This document shows, piece by piece, positions 1-19,987 of a DNA stretch of 22,737 bases (the first letter of the stretch is position 1; each line of letters opens with the position of its first letter). A program made the translations under genes and the position numbers. This DNA is from an uncultured archaeon. GTDB taxonomy: Archaea > Asgardarchaeota > Heimdallarchaeia > Heimdallarchaeales > Heimdallarchaeaceae. The notes under the pieces are model-generated. The model worked only from the letters and a program-made list of their open reading frames with translations. It was not told where the DNA came from and made no database searches. The DNA is taken from the NCBI GenBank assembly GCA_964549075.1, contig CAZJUB010000015.1, positions 24,687-47,423 on the forward strand. The letters are read 5' to 3'.

Positions 1-105
1 TCTGAAGGGAAAGAGTCTGAAGGGAGAGAGTCTGAAGGGAGAGAGTCTGAAGGGAAAGAGTCTGAAGGGAGAGAGTCTGAAGGGAGAGAGTCTGAAGGGA
101 GGGAG
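1..105 (+). repeat. 15-bp tandem repeat TCTGAAGGGARAGAG, at least 7 copies (cut by window edge), in-frame coding for SEG(K/R)E
   Basis: Units start at 1, 16, 31, 46, 61, 76 and 91. The variable codon reads AAA, AGA, AGA, AAA, AGA, AGA, AGG. There are no spacers. Confidence 0.97.
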
Positions 106-810
106 CATCCTTTCTCTTACATAGAATTTCACCCGATCCAACTCTTAATTTTAAGGGATATCACAAGAGATTTTAAAACACCTATGACTGAATTACTAGA
201 AAAATATAGAAGTTATTTTTCAGAAAAAACAGAAAAAAGTGGAGTAATACCAAAATATGACGATGTTAGTTCATTTAAACTCCCTAATTATTTTAAATCC
301 TATCTACATGAATTTTTCTCAGATAAGAGAACTGAAAATGCAATCTACTTAGATTTTAAGAAAAAATATCATTTAGTTGTAGATAAACATGTTGAAAGTT
401 ATTGGTTGAGTATAAAGAGAAAGTATTTTGATTTATTTATAAGATTTGGGTACATAATAAATAACATAACAGTTGAAGAAAAACAAAGGATTTTCAACAT
501 TTTTTGTTGTGAGAAACCTCCATTTAATATATATCTTGAAGATCTTGGAAAGAACATTTTTTTAACCTTATCTTTACCTCCTTATTATCAATCAAGATTA
601 TCCTATTTAATGAAAGAACTATACGGTAAATTTTCTGTTTTTTTAATAGATAGTTTTGAATATAACGCAATAAAGTACAGATTTTTCATTGAAAATTATA
701 ATATTGAAAATCAAAAATGGCGTAGTGATAAAGAATGGATGTATGATAAAGTGGTAGAAGGAATAGAAGATAATTTGTCAAAAGAAGTGTATAGAACGGT
801 TCAAAACTAA
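1..810 (+). CDS. Hypothetical protein, 5'-partial, with SEG(K/R)E repeats followed by a possible Lrp/AsnC-like HTH segment
   Basis: Frame +1 is open from base 1 to TAA at 808-810. The track ORF 184..810 is in this frame and reads through as (SEG[K/R]E)7-HPFSYIEFHPIQLLILRDITRDFKTPMTELLEKY. The segment IQLLILRDITRDFKTPMTELL resembles an AsnC-type HTH start, which is a weak call. Confidence 0.7.
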   Translation, partial: SEGKESEGRESEGRESEGKESEGRESEGRESEGREHPFSYIEFHPIQLLILRDITRDFKTPMTELLEKYRSYFSEKTEKSGVIPKYDDVSSFKLPNYFKSYLHEFFSDKRTENAIYLDFKKKYHLVVDKHVESYWLSIKRKYFDLFIRFGYIINNITVEEKQRIFNIFCCEKPPFNIYLEDLGKNIFLTLSLPPYYQSRLSYLMKELYGKFSVFLIDSFEYNAIKYRFFIENYNIENQKWRSDKEWMYDKVVEGIEDNLSKEVYRTVQN

Positions 811-823
811 TGAGGAATAAGAA

Positions 824-1213
824 ATGGTAAAAATATATATTGTTGAAGATAATGAAGAACTACAAAAATTGTATGTTTTGAATCTGACTAATAATGGGCA
901 TACAATTATAGGACAGTCTTATAATGGGGAGGAAGCATTAATTGATTTGTTTTTCAATTATGGTACAAATACACCAGATATTTTAATTTTAGACTATAAC
1001 ATTCCAGGTAAAAATGGACTTGAACTTTTTAATGATTTAAATAATTTAGGTTTATTAACAAATACAAGCACTTTACTCATTTCTGCTAACAAAGATTTAG
1101 AAACTCAGGCTTTAGAAATTGGAATAACTAAATATATTAACAAACCGTTTTATTTTAAAAAGCTAAATGAAATAATATCTGAACTCATCAAAATACAACT
1201 TAATTTTCCATGA
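824..1213 (+). CDS. Stand-alone response regulator receiver (CheY-like) protein
   Basis: Acidic pocket IVEDN, phosphoacceptor in PDILILDYNIPGKNG, LISA and YINKPF motifs. Upstream GAGGA; starts 13 nt after the previous stop. Confidence 0.93.
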   Translation: MVKIYIVEDNEELQKLYVLNLTNNGHTIIGQSYNGEEALIDLFFNYGTNTPDILILDYNIPGKNGLELFNDLNNLGLLTNTSTLLISANKDLETQALEIGITKYINKPFYFKKLNEIISELIKIQLNFP

Positions 1214-1303
1214 AGAAATAATAGTTTAGGGAACATTTTTCTTAGTTTCAACCTTTAATATTTCTATTTAAAGGCATATAAAATTAGAAAAAATAAAGAA
1301 GCA

Positions 1304-4027
1304 TCAGGTTTCGAGTTCTTTACAAAGACTTGTTGCCTGTTTTTTCTTCTTTATTAGTTCATTGTAGAAATTCTCATATTTCTTTATAAAAATCTTAATT
1401 GCTTTATCATATGTTGAAATAGATAATTTGCAATTTTCCTCGTTTTTATCAACTTCAGCAATAATTCTGTAAGTGTCAGCTAAAATCGATGTGGTCACAG
1501 CATATTCAAATGGAAATTGTGCTTGATTTCTAACTGTTAATGAATCATTAAGAGCTACAATAGCTTGATTACAATTTGCTAGCTTCTTTTCATTACTACT
1601 AAGCTCAGCTAATATAGAGTAGGATAAACCAATATTATTGTAAATCATTGATTTTTCAGTTAATATTAAATCTAAAGAACCAGCTCTTAAAGCTCCATTA
1701 AAAGAATCAATTGCAAAGGTTGCATACATTTCTGATTCAGTAGTAAGAGCAAGATTCAAATATGCTATCCCCTGATTTACCATTGTAATAGCATATTCAA
1801 AAGGAGAATTTATCAGATCTCTACTTTTTAATGCTTCTTGGAATGCAAGAATTGTCATTTTTATATTAAGTTCTTTTTCTTCTAATTCTGATAAAGTATA
1901 GTACGCTAATCCAAGGTTATAATTTACTTGTCCATATTCATATTTAAATAACGAACTAGAATATATTTTCAATGCATCTTGATAGGATGAAATCGCATAT
2001 TTACAGTTGTTTGCCTTAGCTTCGATTTCAGATAAAGAAAGATAGAAATTACCTAAATCATTTTTTATTTGCGCAAATTGAAGTGGAAAACTTAATATCG
2101 TATATTTTTTCAGTGCACTTCTATAAGCTTTAACTGCAATTTTAATAAACTGCTTTTTCCATTTTTTAACATCAGAATCAGAAATAAAAGAATTAACATT
2201 CCAGAAGTGGGAAGAATACATACTATCAATATTAGCAATAAAGTAAGCAGCATCTCCAATATCCACAAGAACATCTGGAACATTTCTGAATATTTGTATC
2301 AAATCTGTAAAAAGTTGTGGGATATCAGGAGGGACATTAGCTCCAAAACCTAAAGCTTCTCTTAAGAAATACTTTTCTGATGGTAGTTCATAATTATCTA
2401 ACAGAAGAAGTTTGTCATTTTTCAAAGCTCCTAACCATTCTTTCCACAGATACCAACTACCTGAGAGAGATTCTGTTTTATATTCTGACTTAATAGACCA
2501 ATCTTTCGGAATTTCCTCTTTTTCTTGATTTTTCTGACTTGGTTCTAACATCTCTTTAAGCATTTGTTCTTCAGCTGAATAATCTTCAATTTTTGGTTCG
2601 ATTATTTTATCACCTATCTTTTGAATTAAGACTCCTCTCTTTTTCATAGCATGTGCAGCTACAAGCTGATAATGTCCTCCATAAACAACAAAATCTAATA
2701 TTTCGTGTATTCTTTCATCAGCTTTTCCATATAAACTTCGAATATCTTTTACAGAAGAGTTCCTTGCATAAGCTATATCAGCATATGTTAGATCTATTTC
2801 TTCTTTCAAATGCCAAACGTACCAATGTTCATCTTTAAGTAATAACGGATAAGGATTTTTTATTCTTATATAGCCAAATTTTAAAAGAAAACGGTATGCT
2901 TGACCAAATTGTACTAAATCACCACCTGCTATAAGATTATCTACAGAAATTGGATCATTTTCATCTAATAACTCAATTCTGTTAAAAAGAGTTCGTGAGT
3001 TTATTGTTATTTGTAGTAAGGGGGTTTTTTCATTTTGTAGGATATGATTTAATAAGTAATTGAAATCCTGCTTATCAACTGCAAATTCTTTGATATGATT
3101 TAGGTCTCTAATCTTAAAAATATCAACGTCACCTGGTATTGGTAATAATTCACGTTTGATTTTTTCTCCTTCTTCTTTAATTGATTCTCCTAATGAAAAA
3201 GAAGTCATACTTCTGACATCTGAAGGTACAGATTCAAGTTGAGCACGTGAATCTTTATAAGATGTTCTAAGTTGTTTTGTCGATAACTGAGGTCTTTTTA
3301 CTTCTTCTGAAATTGGTTTTAATTCAGATCTATGGTCTTTCACTTTAACTTTCATATCTTGTTTTTGTAATGTGTGTCGTTTTTCTTCTTCAGAGACCTT
3401 TTTTAATCCTGCTTTTACATCTTTAATTTCAGTTTGTAAATCTTTTTTCTGCAATACATGTTTTTTCTTTGAATCAGCTACACTAACTAAATCTGCTTTT
3501 GCATCCTTTATTGCTAATTCCAAATCTTTTTTTGAAAAGGAATGTGTCTTATCTTCATCGTGTACTGATTCTAGACTCGAAATTGCATTTAGAATAGCTG
3601 ATTTTAGATTTTCATTAGTCTGGTCTTCTTTCTTATCACTTTTTGGTGTTTTTACTAATTGTTCTTTCGCTTCTAAAATATCATTTTGTAAAGATGGTTT
3701 TTTCGATAGAAGAGATTTTTCTTCTAATGTAGCCGAAGTCAAATTTTCTAAAACATCACGAATTGTAGATTCTAAATCATTTTTTGTTGTATTTTTCTTT
3801 TTTTCTTCTTGTGATACAGGTTCTAATCTTAAAATAGCTTCTTGGATTGCACTTTGAAGACTTTTTTGTGTTTCTATGTCACCTTTTGATTTATCTGTTC
3901 CTCTTTTTTCTATAGGATTTTTCTTTTTATTTTTTAATTCTTCTTTTGAGTTTTGAATAATTGCTGCAGTAGGAGACTTTTTAGTTGAACTTGTTTTAGA
4001 TTTTGTTTTCTTTTTCTTCTTTGACAT
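1304..4027 (-). CDS. Large multidomain protein: Lys-rich N-terminus, 8 x 28-aa WH2/beta-thymosin-like repeats, sigma70-r4-like HTH, C-terminal TPR array
   Basis: Start moved to ATG 4027 (GGTGA-gaat-ATG). TPR units of the type AxxAYxxALxxxTxxxFPxxYAxxxxNLGxxYxxL lie at about 1307-2150, the HTH-like segment LTYADIAYARNSSVKDIRSLYGKADERI at about 2696-2842, and the repeats at 3188-3859. Confidence 0.88.
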   Translation of the reverse strand: MSKKKKKTKSKTSSTKKSPTAAIIQNSKEELKNKKKNPIEKRGTDKSKGDIETQKSLQSAIQEAILRLEPVSQEEKKKNTTKNDLESTIRDVLENLTSATLEEKSLLSKKPSLQNDILEAKEQLVKTPKSDKKEDQTNENLKSAILNAISSLESVHDEDKTHSFSKKDLELAIKDAKADLVSVADSKKKHVLQKKDLQTEIKDVKAGLKKVSEEEKRHTLQKQDMKVKVKDHRSELKPISEEVKRPQLSTKQLRTSYKDSRAQLESVPSDVRSMTSFSLGESIKEEGEKIKRELLPIPGDVDIFKIRDLNHIKEFAVDKQDFNYLLNHILQNEKTPLLQITINSRTLFNRIELLDENDPISVDNLIAGGDLVQFGQAYRFLLKFGYIRIKNPYPLLLKDEHWYVWHLKEEIDLTYADIAYARNSSVKDIRSLYGKADERIHEILDFVVYGGHYQLVAAHAMKKRGVLIQKIGDKIIEPKIEDYSAEEQMLKEMLEPSQKNQEKEEIPKDWSIKSEYKTESLSGSWYLWKEWLGALKNDKLLLLDNYELPSEKYFLREALGFGANVPPDIPQLFTDLIQIFRNVPDVLVDIGDAAYFIANIDSMYSSHFWNVNSFISDSDVKKWKKQFIKIAVKAYRSALKKYTILSFPLQFAQIKNDLGNFYLSLSEIEAKANNCKYAISSYQDALKIYSSSLFKYEYGQVNYNLGLAYYTLSELEEKELNIKMTILAFQEALKSRDLINSPFEYAITMVNQGIAYLNLALTTESEMYATFAIDSFNGALRAGSLDLILTEKSMIYNNIGLSYSILAELSSNEKKLANCNQAIVALNDSLTVRNQAQFPFEYAVTTSILADTYRIIAEVDKNEENCKLSISTYDKAIKIFIKKYENFYNELIKKKKQATSLCKELET
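3188..3859 (-). repeat. Eight tandem degenerate 28-aa (84-bp) protein repeats, consensus L-x3-I-x6-L-x2-V-x3-(E/D)-K
   Basis: Repeats start at track-ORF residues L76, L104, L132, L160, L188, L216, M244 and L272. The period is exactly 28 residues, with Leu at +11 and Lys/Arg at +19 in all eight. Confidence 0.9.
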
Positions 4028-4209
4028 ATTCTCACCTTGTGGAGTATTACTTGAACTTGAACTACCTCGTTTTAGAATAATCAATAAAATAGTGATTTTT
4101 ATTTTTAATATGATTTTGAAAATAAAAGGTCAAAATATAGAAAAAAATAGAAAGACAAAGTGTAAATATTTAATTTTGAAAGATATTTTTTAACATGTTT
4201 GATCAATAT

Positions 4210-5172
4210 CTACAAAGAAATTTCACTTACTTCTCTATACTCATCTTTCGGAATTTCAAATGTTTTAATTATAAATTTGATTAATTCATCTTTTGAACTT
4301 GATCTTCTTTCTTCCAGATGCTCAAAAATAAGATCAATAAGTCGCTGAGCATTTTTGTGGGAGGTATTTATTTCAGTTATTAAAGATATTACAATCTCCC
4401 CTCTCTCCTGAAACACTATTTGTCCATAGTTTGATACTATACTTGCGATTCTTTCCTCTCTAAGTGAGTTTTCTTCTTTTTCTAATACATTAGATAACAT
4501 GGTTATTATTATGTCAATATTCTCAGTTACATCAGAAAAATCAAGAAACAATTTAATATTTCCAAATGTATTTGAAATTATCAGACCTTTAGGAATGAGC
4601 AATTTATCAATAGTAATTTCCTGAATTTTCTTAGAAAACCAGTCCATTGCTTCAGGTAAGTTAAAATTTGTTTTAACACTTATTTTGAATATCTGAAAGC
4701 TAATTTTTGGATATTTACTCATTCTTTGTAATTCAAGTGATTGGATTATATCTTCAAGAGTCATGCAATCTAAATCTGCTTTGTTTGCGAGAAATGCTAC
4801 TACTATCTTGTTTTCTATTTCTAAATTATCTATCAAATACCAAAACCATTCCTTACCTTCTTTTATTCTTTCTTGATTTGAAGCATCAAATATAAAAAGA
4901 ACGCCATAGCTATTAGAAGCATAGTTTATCCAAAACTGTCGCCTTAAAACTTCATGACCTCCTAAATCAAAAAGTTTCAAACGAGTATCTCCAATCCTAT
5001 AGGTTTCGAAGTTAATACCCAAAGTAGGAACAGTATTATCAATCCATTCTCCAGTTGCAAGTCTTAAAGCTAAACTAGTTTTTCCTGCTTCATTTAATCC
5101 AATAAGAGTAACTGGTATTCCTTTTATTCCAGCATCTAAATTTACTTTGTTGTTAGTTTTGTTTATAGTCAT
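4210..5172 (-). CDS. Arf/Sar1-like small GTPase with C-terminal longin/roadblock-like domain (paralog 1)
   Basis: G1 GLNEAGKT, G2 PTLG, G3 DLGGH, G4 NKAD, G5 SVK, followed by an alpha/beta tail of about 135 aa. Confidence 0.92.
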   Translation of the reverse strand: MTINKTNNKVNLDAGIKGIPVTLIGLNEAGKTSLALRLATGEWIDNTVPTLGINFETYRIGDTRLKLFDLGGHEVLRRQFWINYASNSYGVLFIFDASNQERIKEGKEWFWYLIDNLEIENKIVVAFLANKADLDCMTLEDIIQSLELQRMSKYPKISFQIFKISVKTNFNLPEAMDWFSKKIQEITIDKLLIPKGLIISNTFGNIKLFLDFSDVTENIDIIITMLSNVLEKEENSLREERIASIVSNYGQIVFQERGEIVISLITEINTSHKNAQRLIDLIFEHLEERRSSSKDELIKFIIKTFEIPKDEYREVSEISL

Positions 5173-5201
5173 CGTTTATCTTTTCCATTTTTATTTTTGT
5201 C

Positions 5202-6533
5202 TTAATCTATAAATACAATCTCCCTGAATTTTGTTAAGTCATTCTTATCCATTCTATTAGGATATTCGTAATCTTGAATTAAATCTAAAAATCTTTTTTC
5301 TATTTTCTTGTTTGAAACAAGAAATTCTGTTTTATCTTTTGGAAAAATAACAGCAAGCAGATAATATTGATTCCTGTCCATTCTAGAATCAATTTCTGCA
5401 TCATCTCGACCAGTAAATGCAAAAATAATAGCATTAAAATTCTTCAATTTTGGAGCTGGAATTGGACCATATACTCCCTTTGCATGTCTATTTCCTTGTC
5501 CTATACTTGTATAGAATACTGTTGAAAAGTATTCGGGATATATCTTAAAATTCCTTAAATCTTCTATTACAATTTCTCCTCCAAGAGATGCAAAACGAAA
5601 TAATACAACTCCTACACTATCATCATTTGCTATTGTTCTTCTTATATTTACTATTTTTTCCTTCTGCTTTATATTATAACTATCATCAGTAAGGGTAATT
5701 ATGTGTGTAATTTCATCATCTTCTGTTACTTGTACAATAGAAACTAGACAAGGGAATTCAAAGTTATCTTTCCGTCTGATATTAAAGATTCTACCTTCTA
5801 TTGGTCGATTTTCAAAGATTACAAAAGTAAAATCTGGGAAAATATGGTTTATTATAATATCAGATTCATGAAGTTCAGCTAAAGAGTATCCTGTCATCAT
5901 TTCAAACATTTGATTTGCAAATTGGATCTTTCCTTTTGAATTAACTGAAGCAATACCTGAGGGATTACAATTCAAAATTCTAGTAGTTTCTTTGTTATTA
6001 AATTCTAATTGTTCAAATAAAATTGCGTTTCTAATCGATAGCACTATAACAGCATTTATTTTTTCTATATTTTTCTTAATTTTCTTCAATTCAATAATAG
6101 AATTTCCTAACGGTATTTCAATTATGTAACCATATAATTTTGAAATTTTGAAAGGAAAATAGAAAGTAAGAATATTTTTCCTTTGAAAAATGGATCTTTT
6201 TCTAATACAAGGTTTTGTTATATTTCTCAACCTTTGAATTAATTTTTCTAGTACAATAATTTTTGTTTTTATTTCTTCTTCTAGCCAAAAAGATTGGATA
6301 ATATCATTATTGTAATCAAAAAAATAGAAACTCAGTTTCTGATTTTTGTAGATTTTATATAAATTAGCTAGAATAATTTTAACAATATCAGAAAGAGATA
6401 ATTTTTCTCGTAGTTCTTGTGCAAGATTTATAGTTGTATTTAAGAAATAATTCTCTTCATATAAGTTATCATCATTTTTTATATTTTCCTTCATTTTAAT
6501 CAATTGATTTGAAAAGTTTTTTATGTTTCCCAA
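5202..6533 (-). CDS. Sensor protein: GAF-like N-terminal region, PAS domain, uncharacterised C-terminal alpha/beta domain
   Basis: The ...SIRNAILFEQL helix is typical of a GAF end. PAS reads ILNCNPSGIASVNSKGKIQFANQMFEMMTGYSLAEL...RRKDNFEFPCLVSI. The start is either TTG 6533 (overlapping the upstream GTPase stop) or ATG 6494. Confidence 0.85.
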   Translation of the reverse strand: MGNIKNFSNQLIKMKENIKNDDNLYEENYFLNTTINLAQELREKLSLSDIVKIILANLYKIYKNQKLSFYFFDYNNDIIQSFWLEEEIKTKIIVLEKLIQRLRNITKPCIRKRSIFQRKNILTFYFPFKISKLYGYIIEIPLGNSIIELKKIKKNIEKINAVIVLSIRNAILFEQLEFNNKETTRILNCNPSGIASVNSKGKIQFANQMFEMMTGYSLAELHESDIIINHIFPDFTFVIFENRPIEGRIFNIRRKDNFEFPCLVSIVQVTEDDEITHIITLTDDSYNIKQKEKIVNIRRTIANDDSVGVVLFRFASLGGEIVIEDLRNFKIYPEYFSTVFYTSIGQGNRHAKGVYGPIPAPKLKNFNAIIFAFTGRDDAEIDSRMDRNQYYLLAVIFPKDKTEFLVSNKKIEKRFLDLIQDYEYPNRMDKNDLTKFREIVFID

Positions 6534-7420
6534 ACAATATCTTTAACTTGATTAAGGAGAAATTCTTTATCTACCTTTAAATCATGATTAATTCGAGAGA
6601 GAGAGTTAAAAAACAAAGACAAACCTATTTCTCTTGCCAAACTATGTGGATCATCTTTATCAACATATATTACAGCTCTATAATCGCCTTTTTTTAGGAT
6701 ATGTGCTGTATATCCCTCAATATTAATATGAGGTAAAGAATCAATCATCTTTAAAGAGTGTGTTCGGAAAATTCCCATAATTTTCTCTATGTCTTTTTCA
6801 TTTTCTTCAGAAGCTAGATTTTCACGAATTATAGATTCTATCCTATCATCATAAATTTCAAAACCATGTACGTGAACGAATTTCTTTGAATCAATTCGAT
6901 TTCTGATAGATTTAGCTAACCAATTCCAACAATCTTCAATATTTTCTCCAGTTTTACTGGATGTTTCAAAGATTCTGAAGCTTTTCAGTGGAGATTCACT
7001 AAATTTAGATAGCTCTAAACCTTCTATTATATCGTCTAATGACATTGAAGGGAGTATATCAGATTTATTAGCAAAAAAGGCAAAGTTTGCATCTTTGGGT
7101 ACCCATTTTTCAACTTTCCATAACCATTCTTTTGCCAAATTGATTCTTTTTGCATCAGATCTATCAAATATAAAGATACATCCATGGCATGAAGTAACAA
7201 AGTTTTCCCAAAAAGTTGTTCGAAAAGCTTCATGTCCTCCTAAATCCACAATGTCAAAACGAAAATCATCTCGTTCTAAAAATGAAAGATCATATCCTAT
7301 TGTTGGATGAAAATCTGGTTTAAACTCACCTGTTTTCAACCTATGAATGAATGTTGTTTTTCCTGCATTATCTAATCCTGTTATTGCTATTAATGGATTT
7401 ATCTTTCTTTTTATACTCAT
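6521..7420 (-). CDS. Arf/Sar1-like small GTPase with C-terminal longin/roadblock-like domain (paralog 2)
   Basis: G1 GLDNAGKT (canonical Arf type), PTIG, DLGGH, NKSD, SSK. RBS GGTGA-tagt-ATG. Confidence 0.93.
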   Translation of the reverse strand: MSIKRKINPLIAITGLDNAGKTTFIHRLKTGEFKPDFHPTIGYDLSFLERDDFRFDIVDLGGHEAFRTTFWENFVTSCHGCIFIFDRSDAKRINLAKEWLWKVEKWVPKDANFAFFANKSDILPSMSLDDIIEGLELSKFSESPLKSFRIFETSSKTGENIEDCWNWLAKSIRNRIDSKKFVHVHGFEIYDDRIESIIRENLASEENEKDIEKIMGIFRTHSLKMIDSLPHINIEGYTAHILKKGDYRAVIYVDKDDPHSLAREIGLSLFFNSLSRINHDLKVDKEFLLNQVKDIVWET

Positions 7421-7486
7421 ACTATCACCAACATATTATAATCTATTTTGTAACTAAAATTGAATTATTATTATAATTTAGAAATG

Positions 7487-7516
7487 ATTATGAAAAAATA
7501 TAGAAAAAAATGTAAA
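7487..7516 (-). promoter_or_regulatory. Candidate shared upstream element TTTACAT(T/A)TTTTTCTAT..TTTTCA(T/A)AAT
   Basis: By manual alignment it matches 12620-12650 at 26 of 31 positions. A related copy lies at about 4113-4153. It ends about 67 nt before the paralog 2 start. Low complexity weakens the call. Confidence 0.3.
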
Positions 7517-7799
7517 GATTAGATTGAAGTTTCGAAAGCGAGATTTAATTTTTCAACGAAAAGAGAAGAATCAAAAGAAACACATCAATTATTGCTGGAA
7601 TCATTTATTTAATAAAGTTTTATTTAAACTATATAATAAAAACATAAAATTATACAACTGTTTTTTTGTTTATTTAGCGTGTTTGCAGTTTGAGAAAACT
7701 TTATTAAAAATAAATTTTAAACCATATATACAGGGTTTGCTAAATCATTTGTAGTTAGAGGGAATTTCATGTGGTCACAAGGTTTGGAGGGGGTATGAA

Positions 7800-10766
7800 A
7801 TGAGTCTTGCTTATTTAAGTCAAAAAGAATTGATAGATATTGCTAATCTAGTTTATCTTTCATTAGATACAGACTTTAATATTGAAATGATTAATCAGAA
7901 GGGTTGCGATTTATTTGGATTTACTGAAGATGAGATAATCGGAAAAAATTGGTTTGATACTTTTTTTCAGAAAAAAACAGCAAAAGAGCTCAAACAGAAG
8001 TACAGAAAGTTAATCAATGTAAAAGAAAAGCAAGAAACTCTAAGAGTAGATCAAATTTATACAAAGTCAAGAGAGTTAAAAACAATCTCTTGGAAATGCA
8101 GAACTATCCAAAACGAAAATGGAGACGTTATAGGATTATATAGTTCAGTTGATGATACTACTAAACAGGTTACTTTAGAAAAAATCATCAAACAAACTGA
8201 AGAAAAGTACAATACTTTATTCGAAATTTCTGGAACAGCAATAGGGATAGCTAATCTACAAGGATTTTACACCTTAGTAAATTCGAATTTTGAAAAAATC
8301 ACCGGTTTTGAAAAAAATGAAATTATAGATAAGAAACATTGGAAAGAATTTATTCCAAAGAGTGAATATTCATGTTTAGAAGAAATAAAAGATGTTATTA
8401 ATAAAGATGAAGATTATTCTGCTCAATATGAATCTAAAATAATAACAAAAAGCAGTGAAATAAGAAATGTAATCATAAATATTGAATATATTTCCAAACA
8501 GCGAGAAATTATTACTGTTTTTTCAGATATAACTGAATTAAAGAAAAAAGAACAATTAGCTAGAGAGAGTGAAGAAAAGTATAAGAAATTAGTTGAAGTA
8601 ATACCAGAAGCAATTATTCTAAGTGATCTAGAAGGGGAGATATTATATGCAAATAATAATGCAGCAAAGATTTTCAGCTTTAACAGATTAGTTGACTTTG
8701 AAAGATTAAATATTAAATATCTCTTCCATGAAAATTCAATAAACAAGTATGAAAAAAATTTAGCTGATATTCTGCATGAAAATGAAATAGATTATACTGA
8801 ATACCAAATGATAAGGAAAAATGGAATAAAGTTTCCTTTAGAAGTAAAGCTGAAGCTTATTACAGATATAAATAATACACCTATAGCTATTATGACTATT
8901 GGAAGAGATTTAACAGAAGAAAAGAAACTTGAGCAAGAATTAAAAGAAAAAGAAAGATTGTCTAATAATATTCTGGACAATTCATTTCAATTAACATGGT
9001 TATTACTTCCTCAAGGTAATATAATTAATGTAAATAAAACTGCACTTGATTTTGTTAATGTTAAAGAAGAAGATGTAATAGGTGTTCCAATCTGGGAAAC
9101 TTCTTGGTGGTCAAGTTCTGTACATGAACAAGACAAAATGATGGAAGCAGTTGATAAAGCTGCAAAGGGTAATATAGTAAAAGATGAGTTGTTAATTATT
9201 GATAAAGAAGACAACATAAGAACCATATCCTTTTCACTTAAACCTTTACATAATCAAGAGGGAAAAATAACATATTTAATCTCAGAGGGACAAGATATAA
9301 CTGAAAAGAAAATTGCAGAAAATAACTTAAAGGCATCTGAAGTTCTATATAAAACTCTATTTGAAAATACAGGAACAGGCGTATTTCTCGCTGATGATGA
9401 CTATACTATTTTATTGTGTAATAATAGTTTTGAGAAGATGTGTGGATATTCTGAGAAAGAACTTCAAGGAAAAGTAAAATTAATGCAATTAATAAAAGAA
9501 GAAGAACAAGTAGAATTCTTTGAAATACTGAATAATCGTTCTACTAAAAAATGTCCAGCTATTAACTATGAAACTATTATGAAAACGAGAGATGGGGAAC
9601 TAATACATGTTTTAATTTCCATTTGTGAGATTCCAAAAACAAAACAAACAATTGTATCTGTTTTAGACATAACCGAAAGAAAACTCTTGGAAGGTAAACA
9701 AAAACGAAGTGAAAATAAATTAAAATATTTAGTAGAAAATATGCCTATAGCAATTTCAATCTTATCTCAAAGTTTTGGCATAGTTTCTGTAAATTCTGCA
9801 TATTGGAAATTGTTTGGATATAACTCGAAGAATGAATATTTAGTGAGTGACAATAATGATTTTTGGATTGATACAAATAGAAAAAACAAATTGTTTGAAA
9901 TGATACAAGAAAAGAATTTCATTAGGAATTTTGAAACAAAATTACAAAAAAAAGATAAATCAAGTTTTTGGGCATCAATTTCGTTAATTAGTTTTAAAGA
10001 TATTATAGGTGAGATTTCTTATTTTCAAATAATCGAGGATATTTCAACCAAAAAGAAGTTAGAAGAAAAACTCATCTACAACAAATTAGACTATAAGATA
10101 GAAGAAGCACATATCTATATGATAGAAGAGGAAAGAGCTTTTCATTCTAAAGAAATATTTGAAGATTTATTAAAGGTCGGTTATAACGGCATTTATTTTT
10201 CAAGAGAAATAGAAAAACAACTGAGAAACGACCTTAATAAGAATTGTATCTACTATAAATTTTCAGAAAAAGGAAGTGGTAATATTGTACCACCAAACCT
10301 TAAGAAAATAGAACAAATAATAGAAAAACTTCCAAATAGATGTGTTGTTTTTATTGATAGATTAGATTATTTAATTCAAAAAAATGGCTTTGAATCTACT
10401 TTATTCTTCATTTATAAGCTAATGGATATTGTTTTTCTAAACAACAACATAATACTTGTTTCTGTTGATACTACTACTATGAATCCACAAGAAAAGAAGT
10501 TGCTTGAAAAAGAGCTAAAACAACTCAATAACCATAAAGAAGAACTTCTTCCAGAAGAGCATTATCAACTATTAAAATTCATTTATCAGACTAATATAAC
10601 AGGCTCAAAGCCGACTATATCTGATATAATAACGAAACTTAAAATTAGTCGTCCAACAGCAAGAAAGAGAATAGTCCAATTAATGAATAAAGATTTCATA
10701 GTAGAAAAAACCAGTGGTAGAAGTAAGCTTATTGAGATTACACCAAAAGGTAAATCAGTTTTTTAA
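7800..10766 (+). CDS. One-component regulator: six PAS domains, DUF835 (inactivated KaiC/RecA-like) domain, C-terminal winged HTH
   Basis: Six PAS/PAC units end in DDTT, DITE, DLTE, DITE, DITE and DIST. DUF835-like VVFIDRLDYLIQKNGFESTLFFIYKLMD...LLEKEL lies at about 10090-10530. The wHTH reads PTISDIITKLKISRPTARKRIVQL...GRSKLIEITPKG. Upstream GGAGG. Confidence 0.9.
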   Translation: MSLAYLSQKELIDIANLVYLSLDTDFNIEMINQKGCDLFGFTEDEIIGKNWFDTFFQKKTAKELKQKYRKLINVKEKQETLRVDQIYTKSRELKTISWKCRTIQNENGDVIGLYSSVDDTTKQVTLEKIIKQTEEKYNTLFEISGTAIGIANLQGFYTLVNSNFEKITGFEKNEIIDKKHWKEFIPKSEYSCLEEIKDVINKDEDYSAQYESKIITKSSEIRNVIINIEYISKQREIITVFSDITELKKKEQLARESEEKYKKLVEVIPEAIILSDLEGEILYANNNAAKIFSFNRLVDFERLNIKYLFHENSINKYEKNLADILHENEIDYTEYQMIRKNGIKFPLEVKLKLITDINNTPIAIMTIGRDLTEEKKLEQELKEKERLSNNILDNSFQLTWLLLPQGNIINVNKTALDFVNVKEEDVIGVPIWETSWWSSSVHEQDKMMEAVDKAAKGNIVKDELLIIDKEDNIRTISFSLKPLHNQEGKITYLISEGQDITEKKIAENNLKASEVLYKTLFENTGTGVFLADDDYTILLCNNSFEKMCGYSEKELQGKVKLMQLIKEEEQVEFFEILNNRSTKKCPAINYETIMKTRDGELIHVLISICEIPKTKQTIVSVLDITERKLLEGKQKRSENKLKYLVENMPIAISILSQSFGIVSVNSAYWKLFGYNSKNEYLVSDNNDFWIDTNRKNKLFEMIQEKNFIRNFETKLQKKDKSSFWASISLISFKDIIGEISYFQIIEDISTKKKLEEKLIYNKLDYKIEEAHIYMIEEERAFHSKEIFEDLLKVGYNGIYFSREIEKQLRNDLNKNCIYYKFSEKGSGNIVPPNLKKIEQIIEKLPNRCVVFIDRLDYLIQKNGFESTLFFIYKLMDIVFLNNNIILVSVDTTTMNPQEKKLLEKELKQLNNHKEELLPEEHYQLLKFIYQTNITGSKPTISDIITKLKISRPTARKRIVQLMNKDFIVEKTSGRSKLIEITPKGKSVF

Positions 10767-11147
10767 CTTTTCATATTTTTCTATTTTTTTTATAATAATT
10801 TACGAAATAAATTAAATTATTTAGTATTATATAAACTTGAAAATGATTATTGTAGTTTTAGTTGTGAAGATATTTTTCATTCTTTGTATAAATTTAAAAG
10901 AAATATTAATAGAAAAGAAAAATTTACAGAATGACAAAATACGATCAATTCATTCACGCTATAAATATATATTAAATAGCTTGAAGACATTTATTTTATT
11001 TAAGATAGAAATACAAGAATTCACTAAACGTACTTTTCCTTCTGAAATAAGAGATATTAATTTTAACAAATTCTACACAACCATTGAACTTCCTGAGATT
11101 CGCATTCTGTCTAAAAACATTATAATCCATGAGAAATGGGGAAAAAA

Positions 11148-11603
11148 ATGAAAGAGAATAAAAACAAGCTAAAAATAACAGACAATTTAAATTCACTAGA
11201 ACAAGTCGAAACTGCTGTTATTAAAAAGAAAATCAAGAAGAATAGAATTTTACTAGTTGAAAATGATGAAGATAACAAGTTTATAATTAAGTTTATTCTT
11301 GGTAAATATGATTTTGAAGTTGTTTCAGCTTCTAGTGGTTCTACTGCTTTAGATCTTGTTGATAAGTCTTTTAGTATAGCAATAATAAATAACAATATTC
11401 CAGATATTGGAGATACTAAATTATTCACCAATCTAAAATCAATAAATTCGAATATTGATTTAATTGTCATTAGTGATGGATACAATAGAGAGATTTCAGA
11501 AGATATAGTTATTATAAAAAAACCAATATCAGCTATCAAATTGTTAAGTGCAATAGAACGAATAGTTACAAGAAAAAAGTATACTAGACATGTTAAAATC
11601 TAA
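11148..11603 (+). CDS. Atypical (pseudo-)receiver domain protein lacking the phosphoacceptor Asp
   Basis: Motifs ILLVEND, SSGSTALD, IAIINNNIPD (Asn in place of Asp at 11388-11390), IVIS and IIKKPI. The start is ATG 11148 or 11136. Confidence 0.85.
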   Translation: MKENKNKLKITDNLNSLEQVETAVIKKKIKKNRILLVENDEDNKFIIKFILGKYDFEVVSASSGSTALDLVDKSFSIAIINNNIPDIGDTKLFTNLKSINSNIDLIVISDGYNREISEDIVIIKKPISAIKLLSAIERIVTRKKYTRHVKI

Positions 11604-11620
11604 ATTAAAATGGGGAGTTT

Positions 11621-12559
11621 ATGACATTAACAAAATATTTATCGTTTGATAAAAGTGGGATTCCTATTACAATTGTAGGATTACCTCAAGCAGGTAAAAC
11701 AACATTCGTAAATAGAATGAAGACAGGAACATTTACAATTCCAAATCCAACAACAGGTATGCATTTCGAGAGAATAAACATTCAAGATATTCATTTTGAT
11801 ATATTTGATTTAGGAGGACATGAAATTTATCGTAAAACAATTTGGGAAAGTTATATAAAATTAAGTTATGGAATTATTTTTATCATCGATTCTGCTAACG
11901 AAAGCATCCTAGAAGAAGTAAAGAAAGAATTTTGGAGATGCATAAGTATCAAAGAAAAAGATGAAGAATTTCTTTTGCTCTTTTTGTGTAATAAATCAGA
12001 TCTTGAAAAAAGTATGAATTTGGAAATTTTGGTGAAGAAACTGGAATTATATAAATTAGCACAAATACCAAATTTAACTTATCAATTTTTCAAAGTAAGT
12101 ATGAAAACTGGAGAACACTATGAGTATATCATGAATTGGTTGCACAATAAAACAGAGAAAATAACTTCAAAAAGGAAAATTACTCCATTAATGATTCTCA
12201 TAGCTCAAAAAAGTGGATTATTTATATTAAGCATAGATAAACTAGAGAACAAACAAGATCCGAATCTTGTTTCAGGATTTCTTTCTGCTGTTGAAGGATT
12301 TACAAGAGAAGTGTTTAGAAATGAAGGTTTTTTACAATTTATATTAGAAGAAAATCACAAATATATCATTTCAGCTAAAGAAGAAAACATCTATGCGATA
12401 TTGATTGATAGAGATGATTCACAAGAAGAAGCAAGAAGAATTATAGAAATTATTGATAAATATTACGAGAAAACTAAGAATTACGAATCTTTAGAACAAT
12501 ATATACTACAGATTTTTAGACTAGATATTAAATATTACAACATATCTAGAGCATATTAA
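11621..12559 (+). CDS. Arf/Sar1-like small GTPase with C-terminal longin/roadblock-like domain (paralog 3)
   Basis: GLPQAGKT, PTTG, DLGGH, NKSD, SMK. The tail has MILIAQKSGLFILS...DPNLVSGFLSAVEGFTREVF, a typical longin/roadblock-type helix. GGAG RBS. Confidence 0.93.
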   Translation: MTLTKYLSFDKSGIPITIVGLPQAGKTTFVNRMKTGTFTIPNPTTGMHFERINIQDIHFDIFDLGGHEIYRKTIWESYIKLSYGIIFIIDSANESILEEVKKEFWRCISIKEKDEEFLLLFLCNKSDLEKSMNLEILVKKLELYKLAQIPNLTYQFFKVSMKTGEHYEYIMNWLHNKTEKITSKRKITPLMILIAQKSGLFILSIDKLENKQDPNLVSGFLSAVEGFTREVFRNEGFLQFILEENHKYIISAKEENIYAILIDRDDSQEEARRIIEIIDKYYEKTKNYESLEQYILQIFRLDIKYYNISRAY

Positions 12560-12619
12560 TTGTATTTAGAACTGTTTCCAAAATCAAGAATTTCAAAAAA
12601 CCGATATAATTTCTATTTT

Positions 12620-12650
12620 TTTACATATTTTTCTATTTACTTTTCAAAAT
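12620..12650 (+). promoter_or_regulatory. Candidate shared upstream element (copy of 7487-7516), or T-rich terminator of paralog 3
   Basis: TTTACATATTTTTCTATTTACTTTTCAAAAT, ending about 77 nt before ATG 12727. Confidence 0.3.
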
Positions 12651-12726
12651 AAGTAAAAAGATTCAATTCAATTTCAACAAGATAATTTAGTTTGATTTAT
12701 TCAAACAAATATTTAGTGGTGGGTTG

Positions 12727-13644
12727 ATGAATAAAAAGGGAAGTCCAATAAATGTTGTGATACTTGGTTTAGAAAATGCAGGAAAAACTACTCTCTTGAA
12801 TCATATAGCAGGTTATGAATTCACTGAAACACTAACTACAATAGGAGTCAATGTAGAATTAATTAACTATAGAGGAGTAAATTTCCAAGCGATAGATATT
12901 GGAGGTCAGCTGATTTTTCGAGAGAACTTATGGGGTCATTATGCTACTTTAGCAAAAGGAGTCATCTTTATTTTCGATATTTTTGAAAAAAGTAAGATTA
13001 ATGAAGCAAAGATATGGTTTGAGTATATTCAGAATTGGATCGCTGAGGATGCTAAGCTGATTTTTATTGCTAATAAAATAGATCTAAAAGAAGATAATGA
13101 TAGTTTTTTATCACTTGAAGAGATAATACAAGCTTTTCAATTAGAGAAATTAGCAAAATTTCCTAAAAGAAGTTTTAGAATCTTCGAAGTATCAGCTAAA
13201 ACTGGTAAAAATGTTAAAAATGCGATTACTTGGTTTTTTGAAAAAATCCTTGATAATATTAAAACTGAAAAAAATGTTTCATTTATATATGTATTAGATA
13301 ATGAAAATAATCTTGTTTATTGTAATAATTTAGTTGAAAATGATGAAGTTAATGAAGATTCGCAATTAATCTTTGAAACAATTAAAAATATGAAAGAAAT
13401 GAAAATTAAGCAAAATCTTTTATCTACCAACAATCAAATAATCAATATTGTCGTTGAGAAGAATTTTAGTGTGGTTATTGGGTCTAAGCAAGATATTTCT
13501 AAATATGAATTGACTACAGCTACAAACTCAATTTCAGCAATGATAAAAACTCACTATTTACCAATAAACAAACACGTAGAGGAATTACATGATGTAGTGA
13601 ATACCGCATTTATGAGAAGTTTAACAGAAAAACAAGGTGAATAA
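12727..13644 (+). CDS. Arf-like small GTPase with C-terminal longin/roadblock-like domain (paralog 4)
   Basis: GLENAGKT, TTIG, DIGGQ (the only paralog with the Arf-type Gln), NKID, SAK. Upstream GGTGGG; TTG 12724 is an alternative start. Confidence 0.93.
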   Translation: MNKKGSPINVVILGLENAGKTTLLNHIAGYEFTETLTTIGVNVELINYRGVNFQAIDIGGQLIFRENLWGHYATLAKGVIFIFDIFEKSKINEAKIWFEYIQNWIAEDAKLIFIANKIDLKEDNDSFLSLEEIIQAFQLEKLAKFPKRSFRIFEVSAKTGKNVKNAITWFFEKILDNIKTEKNVSFIYVLDNENNLVYCNNLVENDEVNEDSQLIFETIKNMKEMKIKQNLLSTNNQIINIVVEKNFSVVIGSKQDISKYELTTATNSISAMIKTHYLPINKHVEELHDVVNTAFMRSLTEKQGE

Positions 13645-14604
13645 ATGGTTAGAACTACTATTGCTATTACAGGTCTTCAAAATGCTGGAAAAACATCCTT
13701 CTCTCAAAGATTAGTCTCTGGAGCATATATATTGTCTCAACCAACATATGGTGTAGATGTAGAATTTACACAATATAGAGGAGTACCAATACAAATTTGG
13801 GATATGGGGGGTCATGCTTCATTTAGAAAACATATCTGGCAGAATTATGTAGAACAATCCTCAGCATTAATTTTCATTTTTGATGCAAGTGATTTAAGTA
13901 AAATGGAGGAAAGTGCTGAATGGTTTTGGAACAGTTATGCTTGGATAGCAGAGAAACAAATCCCAATTTTATTTCTAGCAAATAAGTGGGACTTAGTAAA
14001 GGAAACAGAAGAAACAATAGACAAAATAGTATCAGGATTTAATTTGAAAAAAATATCAGAAAAAGCTTTAGAAACACCTTTTAGATTCTTTTTTGTTTCA
14101 GTAAAAACTGGAGCATTTATATCAGAAGCTATGAATTGGTTAATTGGAAAGAGTTTAAATCAATCTAAAGATCAAAAACGAGAAGTTATTTCATTTGATT
14201 TATTCATAAAAATTGATAATTATATAGCTCACTTGCATGATAACACAGATAAAAGAAATATGGTTGCAAAACTTATAAACACCTATAAAGAAAAATGGTC
14301 TTCTACAATGGATTCACTTATTGATGTTTTGGAGGAAATTGTTTTTGAAAAATATAGGGTTTTGTTTATTTCTTATAAAAATAAAGCAATTGTAATTTCA
14401 TCAAAAAGAGAATTTCTAGATCAATCTGTTTTTAAAAACCTAGTACAGGATATTTCTCTTTCTAAATTCAATGATAACATAAATGGTTTTTATAATCTTT
14501 TTGAAGAAACAAAATCTGAATTAGAAAAATACTTTCAGGTAGAGATTGCATCATCATTAAGTTGTGATGTCTCAGATGTAACAACTAGTCAATTTACCAA
14601 TTAG
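13645..14604 (+). CDS. Arf/Sar1-like small GTPase with divergent C-terminal domain (paralog 5)
   Basis: GLQNAGKT, PTYG, DMGGH, NKWD, SVK. The ATG directly abuts the paralog 4 stop, with a GGTGA-ataa-ATG RBS, consistent with translational coupling. Confidence 0.92.
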   Translation: MVRTTIAITGLQNAGKTSFSQRLVSGAYILSQPTYGVDVEFTQYRGVPIQIWDMGGHASFRKHIWQNYVEQSSALIFIFDASDLSKMEESAEWFWNSYAWIAEKQIPILFLANKWDLVKETEETIDKIVSGFNLKKISEKALETPFRFFFVSVKTGAFISEAMNWLIGKSLNQSKDQKREVISFDLFIKIDNYIAHLHDNTDKRNMVAKLINTYKEKWSSTMDSLIDVLEEIVFEKYRVLFISYKNKAIVISSKREFLDQSVFKNLVQDISLSKFNDNINGFYNLFEETKSELEKYFQVEIASSLSCDVSDVTTSQFTN

Positions 14605-15413: not shown

Positions 15414-17477
15414 TTACCTTGAATTCTTCTTTTTAAATCGATTATATACTAAAGTGACTAACAACATCAGTGGAATAAGAAGTAAGCTAAGAACTGGAAT
15501 AAATTCTGAGATTACTGGGTTTACTGTAACAACTACTGTATCCTCTGCAGTGTTTCCTGCAAGATCTTCAACGACAATTCTGAATGAGTATATATCTACA
15601 GATAAACCATCAACATCTACTACGATTGGATTATTTGAGTCCCAGTAACCTGAGGTATAGACGGTTTCCGGACCACCGCTTGGATTAATGTAAACCGTGT
15701 AAACGTGTGGATTCATATCCGTAGCTGACCAATCTATGGTGTTACCAGTCGCTCCTACTATGTAGTCGAAGTTTGCAACGCCTACTACATCGGGATTGAT
15801 GAAATCAATAGTGGTCTCGATAATATTAAGCTTGATCTGACCAGGTAGTATTAAGTAATAGATAAGATTTGAACTTTTCTCAACATATAAGACAGAGTTA
15901 GGATAAGCGAAGTAGGTTAAAGTCCAAACTTCAGTATATTCCCAGGACTTGCTACCATTAATAGTCATCATATCGAACCAATAAACCCAATTTGCATTAT
16001 CACCAATTATAGGATTAGGAACGAGGTTAGCAAAAGCGAAGAATTTCTGATAGAGAAACATCGAAGTTGGGTCGACAGAAACATAACCGTTGAGAACATT
16101 TATCACTATATAATAATTCATTTCTCCTGTAGTCCCAGTTTCGTCGTAAGAACGAAGGCTTACAAGGGTATTCATTTCAAATGGTGATAACCACTCAACA
16201 AAAGTAAAATTATATTCAGCTCCTTCAGTGGTAGATAAGGATAGATATTCCATATTTAAGATATCTCCTTCCTTAAGATTTACAATAGGTATCACATTTA
16301 CTGAGTTTATTTCTACTGAGTCATTTGATACTGACAAATCATAAAAGTGTCCTTCAATATAAATAGTATTTGTACCATTTTCAAACACAGGAACGAAAAA
16401 TTCGTCAATATACGGGTAGTTAAATGTCGTAATAAATACATCATTTACATATATGTCTATGTAATCAAGTTCATAAGAATCCGAGACATCAATTTGACAT
16501 AATACAGATCCTCCTTCTACTGTAGCATAAGGCATTGGAGATTCTATACTCAAAGTATAGACAACTGGATCAAGATATAGTTCAATAATTACACCTTCTC
16601 CATCATAGTTAATTACTGCTGTAGTTTCATTCCAATAATATTTATCAGCTGAAGCCTCAATAATATAATTTCCTGGACCTAAGTTACTACAATTAAATAA
16701 ACCATTGATATCAACATAACCATCAATGATGAAGTAATAGTATTCTGTGTAAAAGGTCACCCATGCACTTTGAATAGGATTTAGAGTCAAACTGTCATAA
16801 ACATATACTTCTAAATAACCTAGCCCTGGGGTGTACTTTGGTGCTAAAAGTATTTCTAGATATACTCCTTCGCCGTCATAAGTGATATGTGGATATGATT
16901 CATTATACCTATAATTTTCAGCGTCGACAAAAATCCAGTATTGACCAACACCTAAACCTGTAAAGTTATAGAAACCATTTACATCAGTAAGTCCAGAATC
17001 TATGTATATACCACTATCACCTGTATAAAGACCAACGTTTGCATTTGGTATTGCAGAAAAATTCCCTGCATCAAGAACGTATAATTCAAAATATCCATTT
17101 CCCGGAGTATAGGGGATAGGGAGATAAAATTCAACTACCTTTTTTTCACCTTCATAATCAATTGTAAGAAAAGAGTCGTTAAATGCATATCCTTGAGCAT
17201 ATACCTGAATAATATAGTCACCTGTTGCTAAGTCTGTAAAATTACAAAAACCACTAGTATCTGTATTAATACTAGCTATCAAAATATAATCATAATCATA
17301 GAGGTCAATGCTGGCATCATAAATGGGCGATAAAGATTCAGCTTCGTAAACGTAGACTTCGATAAAAGCAGTATCCTGAGCGGTTACGGTTAAATAAGTT
17401 GAAAATAGAGGAGTAAAAATTCCAAATAACAAGACAAAGAAAACTAAACCAAAGCAGGTTTTATTCTTTTTGTTCAT
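15414..17477 (-). CDS. Membrane-anchored cell-surface protein with three carboxypeptidase-regulatory/prealbumin-like beta-sandwich repeats and Ig-like domains
   Basis: Start ATG 17477 (GGTGA-aaaa-ATG). Signal peptide MNKKNKTCFGLVFFVLLFG. Three repeats of about 92 aa (EVYVY..P I..A...D.NG..NF..L..G.Y.I...A..Y...I.Y.GE). Ig-like end FRIVVEDLAGNTAEDTVVVTV. C-terminal ISEF, TM helix and basic tail. Confidence 0.88.
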   Translation of the reverse strand: MNKKNKTCFGLVFFVLLFGIFTPLFSTYLTVTAQDTAFIEVYVYEAESLSPIYDASIDLYDYDYILIASINTDTSGFCNFTDLATGDYIIQVYAQGYAFNDSFLTIDYEGEKKVVEFYLPIPYTPGNGYFELYVLDAGNFSAIPNANVGLYTGDSGIYIDSGLTDVNGFYNFTGLGVGQYWIFVDAENYRYNESYPHITYDGEGVYLEILLAPKYTPGLGYLEVYVYDSLTLNPIQSAWVTFYTEYYYFIIDGYVDINGLFNCSNLGPGNYIIEASADKYYWNETTAVINYDGEGVIIELYLDPVVYTLSIESPMPYATVEGGSVLCQIDVSDSYELDYIDIYVNDVFITTFNYPYIDEFFVPVFENGTNTIYIEGHFYDLSVSNDSVEINSVNVIPIVNLKEGDILNMEYLSLSTTEGAEYNFTFVEWLSPFEMNTLVSLRSYDETGTTGEMNYYIVINVLNGYVSVDPTSMFLYQKFFAFANLVPNPIIGDNANWVYWFDMMTINGSKSWEYTEVWTLTYFAYPNSVLYVEKSSNLIYYLILPGQIKLNIIETTIDFINPDVVGVANFDYIVGATGNTIDWSATDMNPHVYTVYINPSGGPETVYTSGYWDSNNPIVVDVDGLSVDIYSFRIVVEDLAGNTAEDTVVVTVNPVISEFIPVLSLLLIPLMLLVTLVYNRFKKKNSR

Positions 17478-18762: not shown

Positions 18763-18773
18763 GAAGTGCTAAG

Positions 18774-19985: not shown

Positions 19986-19987
19986 TT

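Follow-up and report, generated by a model that had tools for sequence, protein, structure and literature searches.

A conserved cluster of ArfR-type GTPases and a PAS-longin protein in Heimdallarchaeaceae

The longin domain is a fold used by GTPase-activating protein (GAP) and guanine nucleotide exchange factor (GEF) complexes for small GTPases. Small GTPases number in the dozens in Asgard archaea, longin and roadblock proteins are plentiful as well, and the regulator-GTPase pairs are obscured by scattered genes (PMC10933270). We analyzed a 22,737-nucleotide stretch of DNA from a Heimdallarchaeaceae archaeon (G000:C15:24687-47423; the window), which comes from an assembly of 3.23 Mb that is about 90% complete. 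An earlier note on this DNA, made from the letters alone, had proposed an undescribed Asgard signaling island in which sensory modules feed a GTPase switch. Here we report that the locus holds a cassette of two ArfR-type GTPases, a PAS protein predicted to end in a longin domain and a large repeat/TPR protein, and that this cassette is conserved in related genomes. The protein homologues are named Candidatus Heimdallarchaeaceae or Heimdallarchaeota, which agrees with the Asgard origin given in the note.

The closest described GTPases are the Asgard ArfR proteins HodArfR1 and GerdArfR1 (Vargova et al., 10.1101/2024.02.28.582541; PDB 8ouk, 8oul, 8oum and 8oun). Characterized ArfRs are about 180 amino acids (aa) long and attach to membranes by an amphipathic helix at the N-terminus; ArfRs with extra domains were set aside in the methods of the same work (10.1101/2024.02.28.582541). 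Small GTPases fused to a roadblock- or longin-type domain are also known from Asgard archaea; those of Prometheoarchaeum were classed as Rag-like (Tran et al. 2024, PMC10933270; LokiRagO, 8yl2, and LokiRagM, 9m28). The longin GAP complexes include FLCN-FNIP, GATOR1 (Nprl2-Nprl3), Lst4-Lst7 and C9orf72-SMCR8. Eukaryotic GAP longins are defined by Gly-Pro before strand 2 and by an arginine finger; the same source reports both motifs in Heimdallarchaeial longins and asks about ArfR or Rag partners (PMC12290439). In Myxococcus, a small GTPase, a roadblock-superfamily regulator and a receiver (REC) protein act together as MglA-MglB-RomR (PMC6785124, PMC13408092). Archaeal REC/PAS-DUF835 (iKaiC) and REC-NitrOD3 proteins give precedents for PAS-DUF835 and for a receiver with a roadblock-like output; DUF835 is the output domain of iKaiC and is an inactivated KaiC-like domain (Galperin et al. 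2018, PMC5847659).

The components of our locus are of known kinds, namely ArfR GTPases, Asgard GTPase-longin/roadblock fusions, GAP-like Asgard longins and PAS-DUF835 proteins. The first three were already in print (10.1101/2024.02.28.582541, PMC10933270, PMC12290439), and the word "undescribed" of the earlier note applies to the cluster and to the PAS-longin fusion. We found no account of either in the literature, in a search that left aside the supplementary tables of the ArfR/AArf papers, which possibly list such long ArfRs. The text of a survey of PAS domains (PMC10468136) contains none of the words "longin", "roadblock" and "GTPase".

The five GTPases of the window, which we call G1 to G5, all match Pfam Arf (PF00025; E 1.7e-27 to 7.7e-34), and the GTPase motifs G1-G5 are intact in each. 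G1 (4210..5172; E 1.9e-30) and G2 (6521..7420; E 1.1e-29) are encoded on the minus strand. G3 (11621..12559), G4 (12724..13644; E 2e-31) and G5 (13645..14604; E 1.7e-27) are on the plus strand. The span from G1 to G5 is 10,395 bp, and the five Arf-type GTPases within about 10.4 kb that the note had listed are all real. They are 299-320 aa long, and the other four are 29-31% identical to G1. Four of the five have the motif DxGGH, with His at the catalytic Gln position (DLGGH in G1); G4 is the only one with DIGGQ. Sar1 also has DxGGH, with His at the same position.

A profile of G3 and its relatives found HodArfR1 (8e-45) and GerdArfR1 (1.5e-42) as the best solved sequences, followed by Arf1 (~1e-36). 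The AlphaFold2 model of G3 had a pLDDT of 88.3. Fold searches with the whole model covered residues 9-186, which is the G domain, so that a two-domain match to Rag could not arise, and the best structural match was again HodArfR1, in the GTP form (Z 22.9, 169 residues, rmsd 2.1). All of the 50 top matches belonged to the Arf family. In a wide structural search, Arf6, Arl8, Sar1 and SR-beta had Z of 19.5-21.4 and the Loki Rag-like 8yl2 had 18.6. As HodArfR1 led both the profile and the structure matches, the G domains of the five GTPases are ArfR-type.

Compared with the characterized ArfRs, the window proteins differ at both ends and at the catalytic Gln position described above. The N-terminal amphipathic helix, a hallmark of Arf that docks onto the core in the GDP form, was not seen in the G3 model, where residues 1-13 are coil and the first strand begins at residue 14. 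G2, G4 and G5 have merely 5-10 residues or so ahead of strand 1, and none of the five has a Gly2 for myristoylation. At the other end, every GTPase runs on for about 125 residues past the G domain (about 130 in G1 and 120 in G2). In the G3 model this C-terminal domain (aa 186-312, window 12176-12559) has the order beta-beta-alpha-beta-beta-beta-alpha-alpha, which is that of a longin rather than a roadblock by the description in PMC10933270. By this topology and by weak sequence links, the C-terminal domain of G3 appears longin-like. Its sequence matched TPR proteins of 600-726 aa in the same genome and a 208-aa protein, which bear sub-threshold Fuz_longin_1/Longin matches, and PF19036 was recorded in 3 of 62 G3 homologues. 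The C-terminal domains of G1, G2, G4 and G5 align poorly with that of G3. Pfam gave nothing meaningful on any of the five, and ESM Atlas gave only leads below 0.9 for that of G3. Profile-profile comparison of these domains gave nothing, even for G1 against G2, with alignments so shallow (Neff ~1.5) that the result is uninformative. The matched TPR proteins are five in number (contigs C19, C29, C35, with two genes, and C181), and one of them has a Fuz_longin_1 match at E 4.5e-5.

We also made a quick tree of G domains, based on the window's own genome and without named ArfL or eukaryotic references. G1, G2, G4 and G5 each paired with their own orthologue (SH-aLRT 99-100), and G3 stood beside a paralogue on contig C55 (97). 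Because each of these four pairs with its orthologue, the array is old and does not stem from a recent duplication. Another abutting pair of long Arf-type GTPases, of 336 and 331 aa with a 0-nt gap, lies at G000:C61:12896-14902 (plus strand). The two have weak Gtr1_RagA matches, and the second is very divergent (end branch 2.02).

The PAS protein (5202..6533, minus strand) has 443 aa and lies between G2 and G1. Its PAS domain was detected as PAS_9 (E 9.8e-7), and Pfam gave nothing meaningful on the C-terminal part (aa 291-443, window 5205-5663). We modeled that part with AlphaFold2 using 11 relatives (pLDDT 87.5). Foldseek matched the model to NPRL2/GATOR1 (6e-4), FNIP2 (8e-4) and the Loki Roadblock-Longin (1e-3), and then to Lst4. 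VIA, which is independent of Foldseek, gave the longin of the same Loki protein, 8yqg, as the best match (Z 10.6, 135 residues, rmsd 3.4), followed by the Lst4 longin (10.4), Npr2/3 (8.1), C9orf72-SMCR8 (8.0) and the FLCN complex (8.0). The Loki Rag-like 9m28 and 8yl2 had Z of 6.8-6.9; TRAPP, Mon1-Ccz1, roadblocks and MglB (5.7) were also lower. The longin GAP complexes are thus among the best structural matches, and the model indicates a longin domain at the C-terminal end of the PAS protein. Pfam gave no match to the first 180 residues; their nearest named language-model clusters are all GAF (0.93-0.94). The GAF domain of the earlier note is such a language-model lead only, and we write the domain order as GAF-like(?)-PAS-longin. 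Since the PAS protein carries a longin domain, the link between sensor and GTPase is stronger than the note saw.

To describe the longin family of this sensor, we searched 1.84 billion representatives with a family profile, which found 366 proteins at E <= 1e-3, of which 139 reached E <= 1e-10. The following counts refer to 100 of the best 150, namely the first 103 without three fragments (81-104 aa); the 47 matches ranked below these lie outside the counts. The longin was fused to PAS in 29, to TPR in 27, to REC in 10 and to GAF in 6. Gly before strand 2 is present in 98 of 100 and is followed by Pro in 54. The family also has GQG after helix 1 and G-x-x-GP-x-P in strand 3. In a motif Asp-x-Arg in the loop between strands 4 and 5, the Arg (domain position 94) is present in 99 of 100, and the window protein and its orthologues keep it. 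The Gly(-Pro) and the near-invariant Arg, with client-like GTPases next door, recall the longin GAP complexes. The differences are that the window longin is fused to PAS/GAF-like domains, has no DENN domain and has Gly-Gly in place of Gly-Pro, that its candidate clients are ArfR-type with their own C-terminal domains, and that its GAP role is a predicted one.

The same longin domain is found elsewhere in the genome on a receiver (G000:C1:4242-5093, minus strand, 283 aa) and on a weak PAS (G000:C10:22266-23156, plus strand, 296 aa). In another family (f4), a 429-aa REC-longin gene comes after a 239-aa Hpt-P2 gene (L058, 4743-6839). The latter resembles an N-terminal fragment of CheA, which hints at a phosphorelay input to a longin output. 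A 596-599-aa protein with the sensor longin domain at about 45% identity occurs in four genomes (L066-L069; G014, G013, G021 and G024) and was not found in that of the window. Its locus has its own conserved setting, with divergent 390- and 305-aa genes and an approximately 360-aa gene downstream. No GTPases are found in this separate locus, and we rejected the protein as a GTPase-linked relative.

We compared the locus with seven loci of congeners (L013-L019). Full-length PAS-longin orthologues, at 49-51% identity, were found in 8 of 24 congeners. The order G2, PAS-longin, G1, TPR is intact in 5/5 loci that cover all four positions (L013-L017). L019 ends at a contig edge. L018, from genome G020, has no G2 at that place; in this genome G2 comes after the TPR gene on contig C210, which plausibly continues L018. 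TPR-protein orthologues (53-58% identity) come after G1 in six loci, and G1 orthologues (60-68%) adjoin the PAS-longin gene in two genera. In 5 of the 6 loci covering that side, the multi-PAS-DUF835 regulator lies next to the cassette as its divergent neighbor; in L017, G4 stands in its place. The outer flanks vary.

G4 and G5 are often found near the cassette. The pair is on the cassette contig in G001, G005, G008 and G024, and the two genes overlap in L016. G4 abuts G2 in G002 and G015 and adjoins the PAS-longin gene in G041, and G5 orthologues (50-57% identity) adjoin G4 or G2. In genus g10 (G041 and G042) the order is small GTPase, G4, then PAS-longin, G1, G2 (convergent), G5 and a small GTPase, and the TPR and regulator genes are absent from the locus. 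Of the 31 genomes of the family, those with PAS-longin (E <= 1e-50) and those with G2 (E <= 1e-80) are the same 12. Two complete genomes of genus g13 have neither. In g13, G1-, G4-, G5- and TPR-like genes (45-51% identity) are dispersed, megabases apart. In two loci from other families of the order, a Ras-like GTPase lies three genes from a sensor-longin; AsnC and TruD genes lie between them, and we judged this coincidental.

Linkage of GTPase, PAS and receiver genes in relatives had been set beforehand as the test of the signaling island. The GTPase-PAS linkage is conserved, and the receivers and G3 fall outside it. REC1 has no counterpart in loci L013-L019. REC2-like genes are found only in L013 and L015, near a second multi-PAS gene. 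In G024 and G002 the orthologues of G3 (61-63% identity) are at other places, with no REC or G4 neighbor. REC1, REC2 and G3 are not conserved neighbors of the cluster. Compared with MglA-MglB-RomR, which the note had named as known from bacteria, MglB is distant from the sensor longin, the GTPases are ArfR-type and not MglA, and the receivers are not conserved neighbors. The published Asgard GTPase fusions share with our locus a small GTPase with a roadblock/longin-type domain; the window differs in its ArfR-type G domains and in having the genes in a conserved cluster with a sensor-longin. The proposal of sensory modules that feed a GTPase switch is partly supported: it is strengthened for the PAS protein and weaker for the receivers.

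Open reading frame (ORF) listing and Pfam placed all genes of the earlier inventory at their positions, in two divergent arms. The tight junctions were also found. G2 and PAS-longin overlap by 13 nt at the stop of the former and the start of the latter, and the gaps are 29 nt for PAS-longin/G1, 17 nt for REC2/G3 and 0 nt for G4/G5. The wider gaps are 125 nt for G1/TPR and 164 nt for G3/G4. Every gene junction from TPR to G5 is bridged by contigs that were assembled from independent marine-sediment reads of 2015 and are about 99% identical (~1% divergent); they join TPR|G1|PAS-longin, PAS-longin|G2|intergenic, regulator|REC2 and REC2|G3|G4|G5. Since these contigs come from an independent run, the gene arrangement is no assembly artefact. 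The clustering exceeds what chance would give. Response_reg matches number 6 in the whole genome (5 of them above the cut-off), PAS frames 9 and long Arf-like GTPases 10, of which 2, 2 and 5 are here. The post-hoc Poisson probabilities, about 3-5e-7 for the sensors and 9e-8 for the GTPases, overstate the case because the window was picked for this very feature.

The last gene of the cassette encodes the repeat/TPR protein (1304..4084, minus strand; 926 aa), which is scaffold-like. A K/S-rich N-terminus is followed by eight 28-aa repeats, a middle part and a TPR_12-like C-terminal third. The repeats cover aa 72-295 (window 3200-3871), starting at aa 72, 100, 128 and so on to 268, with the pattern Asp-Leu-x-x-Ala-Ile ... 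Leu-x-Pro-Val. They are also present in orthologues, and the gene has no tandem repeat at the DNA level. TPR_12 is below threshold in the window protein (20.2 bits against a cut-off of 30.1; E 7e-4) and is recorded (PF13424) in 12 of 19 Heimdall orthologues. The distant matches are TPR regions of CHAT proteins. The note had also called the protein WH2-like. WH2 (PF02205) was absent even at E <= 10, a search in which HMMER filters may hide weak matches, and LKKV is found in one of the eight repeats, whose consensus there is L-x-P-V. As Pfam gave no WH2 match, we dropped this reading. A scaffold role is a fair inference from this architecture. A link to actin is not supported, and apart from that single LKKV nothing was found for the cytoskeletal output that the note had considered. 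In Lokiarchaeum ossiferum, an Arf GTPase is reported to co-precipitate with Lokiactin (10.1101/2025.11.30.690169). This keeps the actin idea open and is silent on the 926-aa protein itself.

Upstream of G2, a divergent intergenic region of 379 bp (7421..7799) separates the cassette from the multi-PAS regulator and presumably holds the promoters of both arms. It is AT-rich and contains a 13-nt direct repeat, TTTAAACYATATA, whose copies at 7623-7635 and 7716-7728 are 93 nt apart, together with an inverted repeat of 14 nt without mismatch (7608-7621 / 7695-7708). Both may serve as promoter or operator elements or have arisen by chance in such AT-rich DNA, and are uninterpretable. The regulator (7800..10766, plus strand; 988 aa) has PAS_9 in six stretches, DUF835 at aa 782-906 (E 2.2e-22) and a C-terminal tail that resembles a winged helix-turn-helix (HTH), as read by eye. 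We class it as a one-component regulator. It differs from the known archaeal PAS-DUF835 proteins in that six PAS precede DUF835 and an HTH-like tail comes after it. Another difference from the known archaeal outputs is that the longin output of the PAS protein lies in a GTPase cluster.

The two receivers are on the plus strand. REC1 (824..1213; 129 aa) is stand-alone and canonical (Response_reg E 5.2e-16), with the phospho-acceptor Asp present. REC2 (11136..11603; 155 aa) is degenerate: it matches profile positions 1-81 of 111 (E 3.9e-8), its C-terminal part is shortened, and it has Asn at the phospho-acceptor column, as expected of the pseudo-receiver in the note. The Asp is retained in the REC2-like genes of L013 and L015. 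For a cognate histidine kinase, the window gave no HATPase_c match; the genome's 7 matches are all on other contigs, and none of its roughly five histidine kinases lies within the window. An ORF of 104 aa (10837-11151, plus strand) follows the regulator gene and runs 16 nt into the start of REC2. Pfam does not match it, and it is unlikely to be a gene.

Gene content, domain folds, conservation and co-occurrence lead us to propose a conserved sensory small-GTPase module of Heimdallarchaeaceae, in which the longin fused to the sensor regulates the neighboring ArfR-longin GTPases or acts as their partner. We give this reading a probability of roughly one half. We infer its binding, GAP activity, signal and output as follows. 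The core would be the co-directional cassette of G2, the GAF-like/PAS-longin sensor, G1 and the large repeat/TPR scaffold. The PAS/GAF part may sense a small molecule or redox state. The sensor longin would pair with the C-terminal domain of G1 and/or G2, possibly also of the G4-G5 pair, in a way that resembles the longin heterodimers FLCN-FNIP or Nprl2-Nprl3. It would thereby set the nucleotide state of the GTPase, most likely as a GAP. The TPR protein would serve as scaffold or effector, and the divergent 6xPAS-DUF835-HTH protein would control transcription of the cassette. G4-G5 would be a second GTPase pair that is often attached to the module. Complex prediction with G1, G2 and the sensor longin scored 0.01 against a mark of 0.32, which weighs neither for nor against binding.

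Several results weigh against a module of this kind. Its distribution is narrow, the 12 of 31 family genomes given above, and 16 genomes from three further families in the order gave no full-length PAS-longin orthologue. Those families have 420-434-aa REC- or PAS-longin genes with no adjacent long GTPase of ArfR type. In genus g11 a 5.9-kb contig carries the PAS-longin gene by itself, and the orthologue of G2 lies on a different contig. The related genomes are not independent samples, and most loci come from one genus. Neither PAS nor REC genes adjoin the remaining five long ArfR-type GTPase genes of this genome. The longin topology of the GTPases was seen in the G3 model, and the whole-model search reached the G domain only. 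In place of Gly-Pro before strand 2, the window PAS-longin and seven orthologues have Gly-Gly. The near-invariant Arg is at most a candidate for an arginine finger like that of FLCN, Nprl2 or SMCR8.

A bolder form of the proposal would make the PAS/GAF-longin a ligand-gated GAP-type longin that acts directly on Arf-related GTPases, each with a non-catalytic partner domain built in. In that case the cassette would be a compact counterpart, in archaea, of FLCN-FNIP, GATOR1 and C9orf72-SMCR8, possibly a relative of their ancestor, with the sensor fused to the catalytic longin and with Arf-type, not Rag-type, clients as the original substrates. We regard this form as tentative and rather doubtful. 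A different arrangement, which we consider unlikely, has the GTPases as Rag-like dimers joined by their C-terminal domains (G1 with G2, G4 with G5), with PAS-longin as a scaffold or effector that reads their state and does not regulate it. RagA and RagC pair through roadblock domains. The 299-320-aa build of G domain plus C-terminal alpha/beta domain does resemble Rag/Gtr, G4 and G5 abut here and overlap in L016, a second abutting pair is found on C61, and Loki Rag-like structures are among the matches of both the G domain and the sensor longin. However, none of the five had a Gtr1_RagA (PF04670) match at E <= 0.01, and the true Rag/Gtr genes of this genome are elsewhere (C179, 2e-33; C9, 4e-18). 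The G domains are nearest to ArfR/Arf, the C-terminal topology in the G3 model is longin-like and not that of a roadblock, and dimers of this kind leave the near-invariant Arg of the sensor longin family unexplained.

The cluster could also be held together by co-regulation without physical coupling, through a shared promoter region and perhaps one condition sensed by the 6xPAS-DUF835-HTH regulator, with no direct contact between sensor and GTPase. The steady presence of the regulator as divergent neighbor fits this explanation, as does the report that Asgard GTPase genes are generally outside operons of putative regulators (PMC10933270). Yet in g10 the GTPases and PAS-longin remain adjacent although the regulator and TPR genes are missing, PAS-longin is accompanied by G2 in 12/12 genomes, their genes overlap by 13 nt in the window, and the output domain of the sensor has the fold of a GTPase regulator. 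We hold co-regulation alone to be improbable. A chance or merely inherited array of paralogues, with synteny from close kinship, is disfavored and very improbable. Most loci do come from one genus of kin genomes, but the paralogues are just about 30% identical, each with its own orthologues, and the cassette persists while the outer flanks differ. In g10 and G020 the order is rearranged and the same orthogroups are still adjacent. PAS and REC genes are, moreover, rare in the genome.

The remaining parts of the window hold other genes. A 5'-open ORF (1-810, plus strand) begins with seven 15-nt copies (1-105) encoding SEGKE/SEGRE, and the 208 aa after these repeats have no Pfam match. Past 14604 the genes are unrelated. 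The first (15414-17510, minus strand) encodes a secreted protein of 698 aa, in which a signal-like segment at the N-terminus is combined with repeats of the CarboxypepD_reg/SpaA type and a membrane anchor at the C-terminus. A transporter of one ABC ATPase and two ABC-2 permeases is encoded at 17809-21244 (plus strand), and a GNAT acetyltransferase at 21274-21894 (minus strand).

Against the background of many Asgard GTPases and regulators in scattered genes, the cluster offers a defined and conserved candidate pair: one sensor-fused longin and two to four ArfR-type GTPases with C-terminal domains. If the proposed sensory module is correct, it would show a prokaryote-style sensor domain wired to a eukaryote-style GTPase switch.

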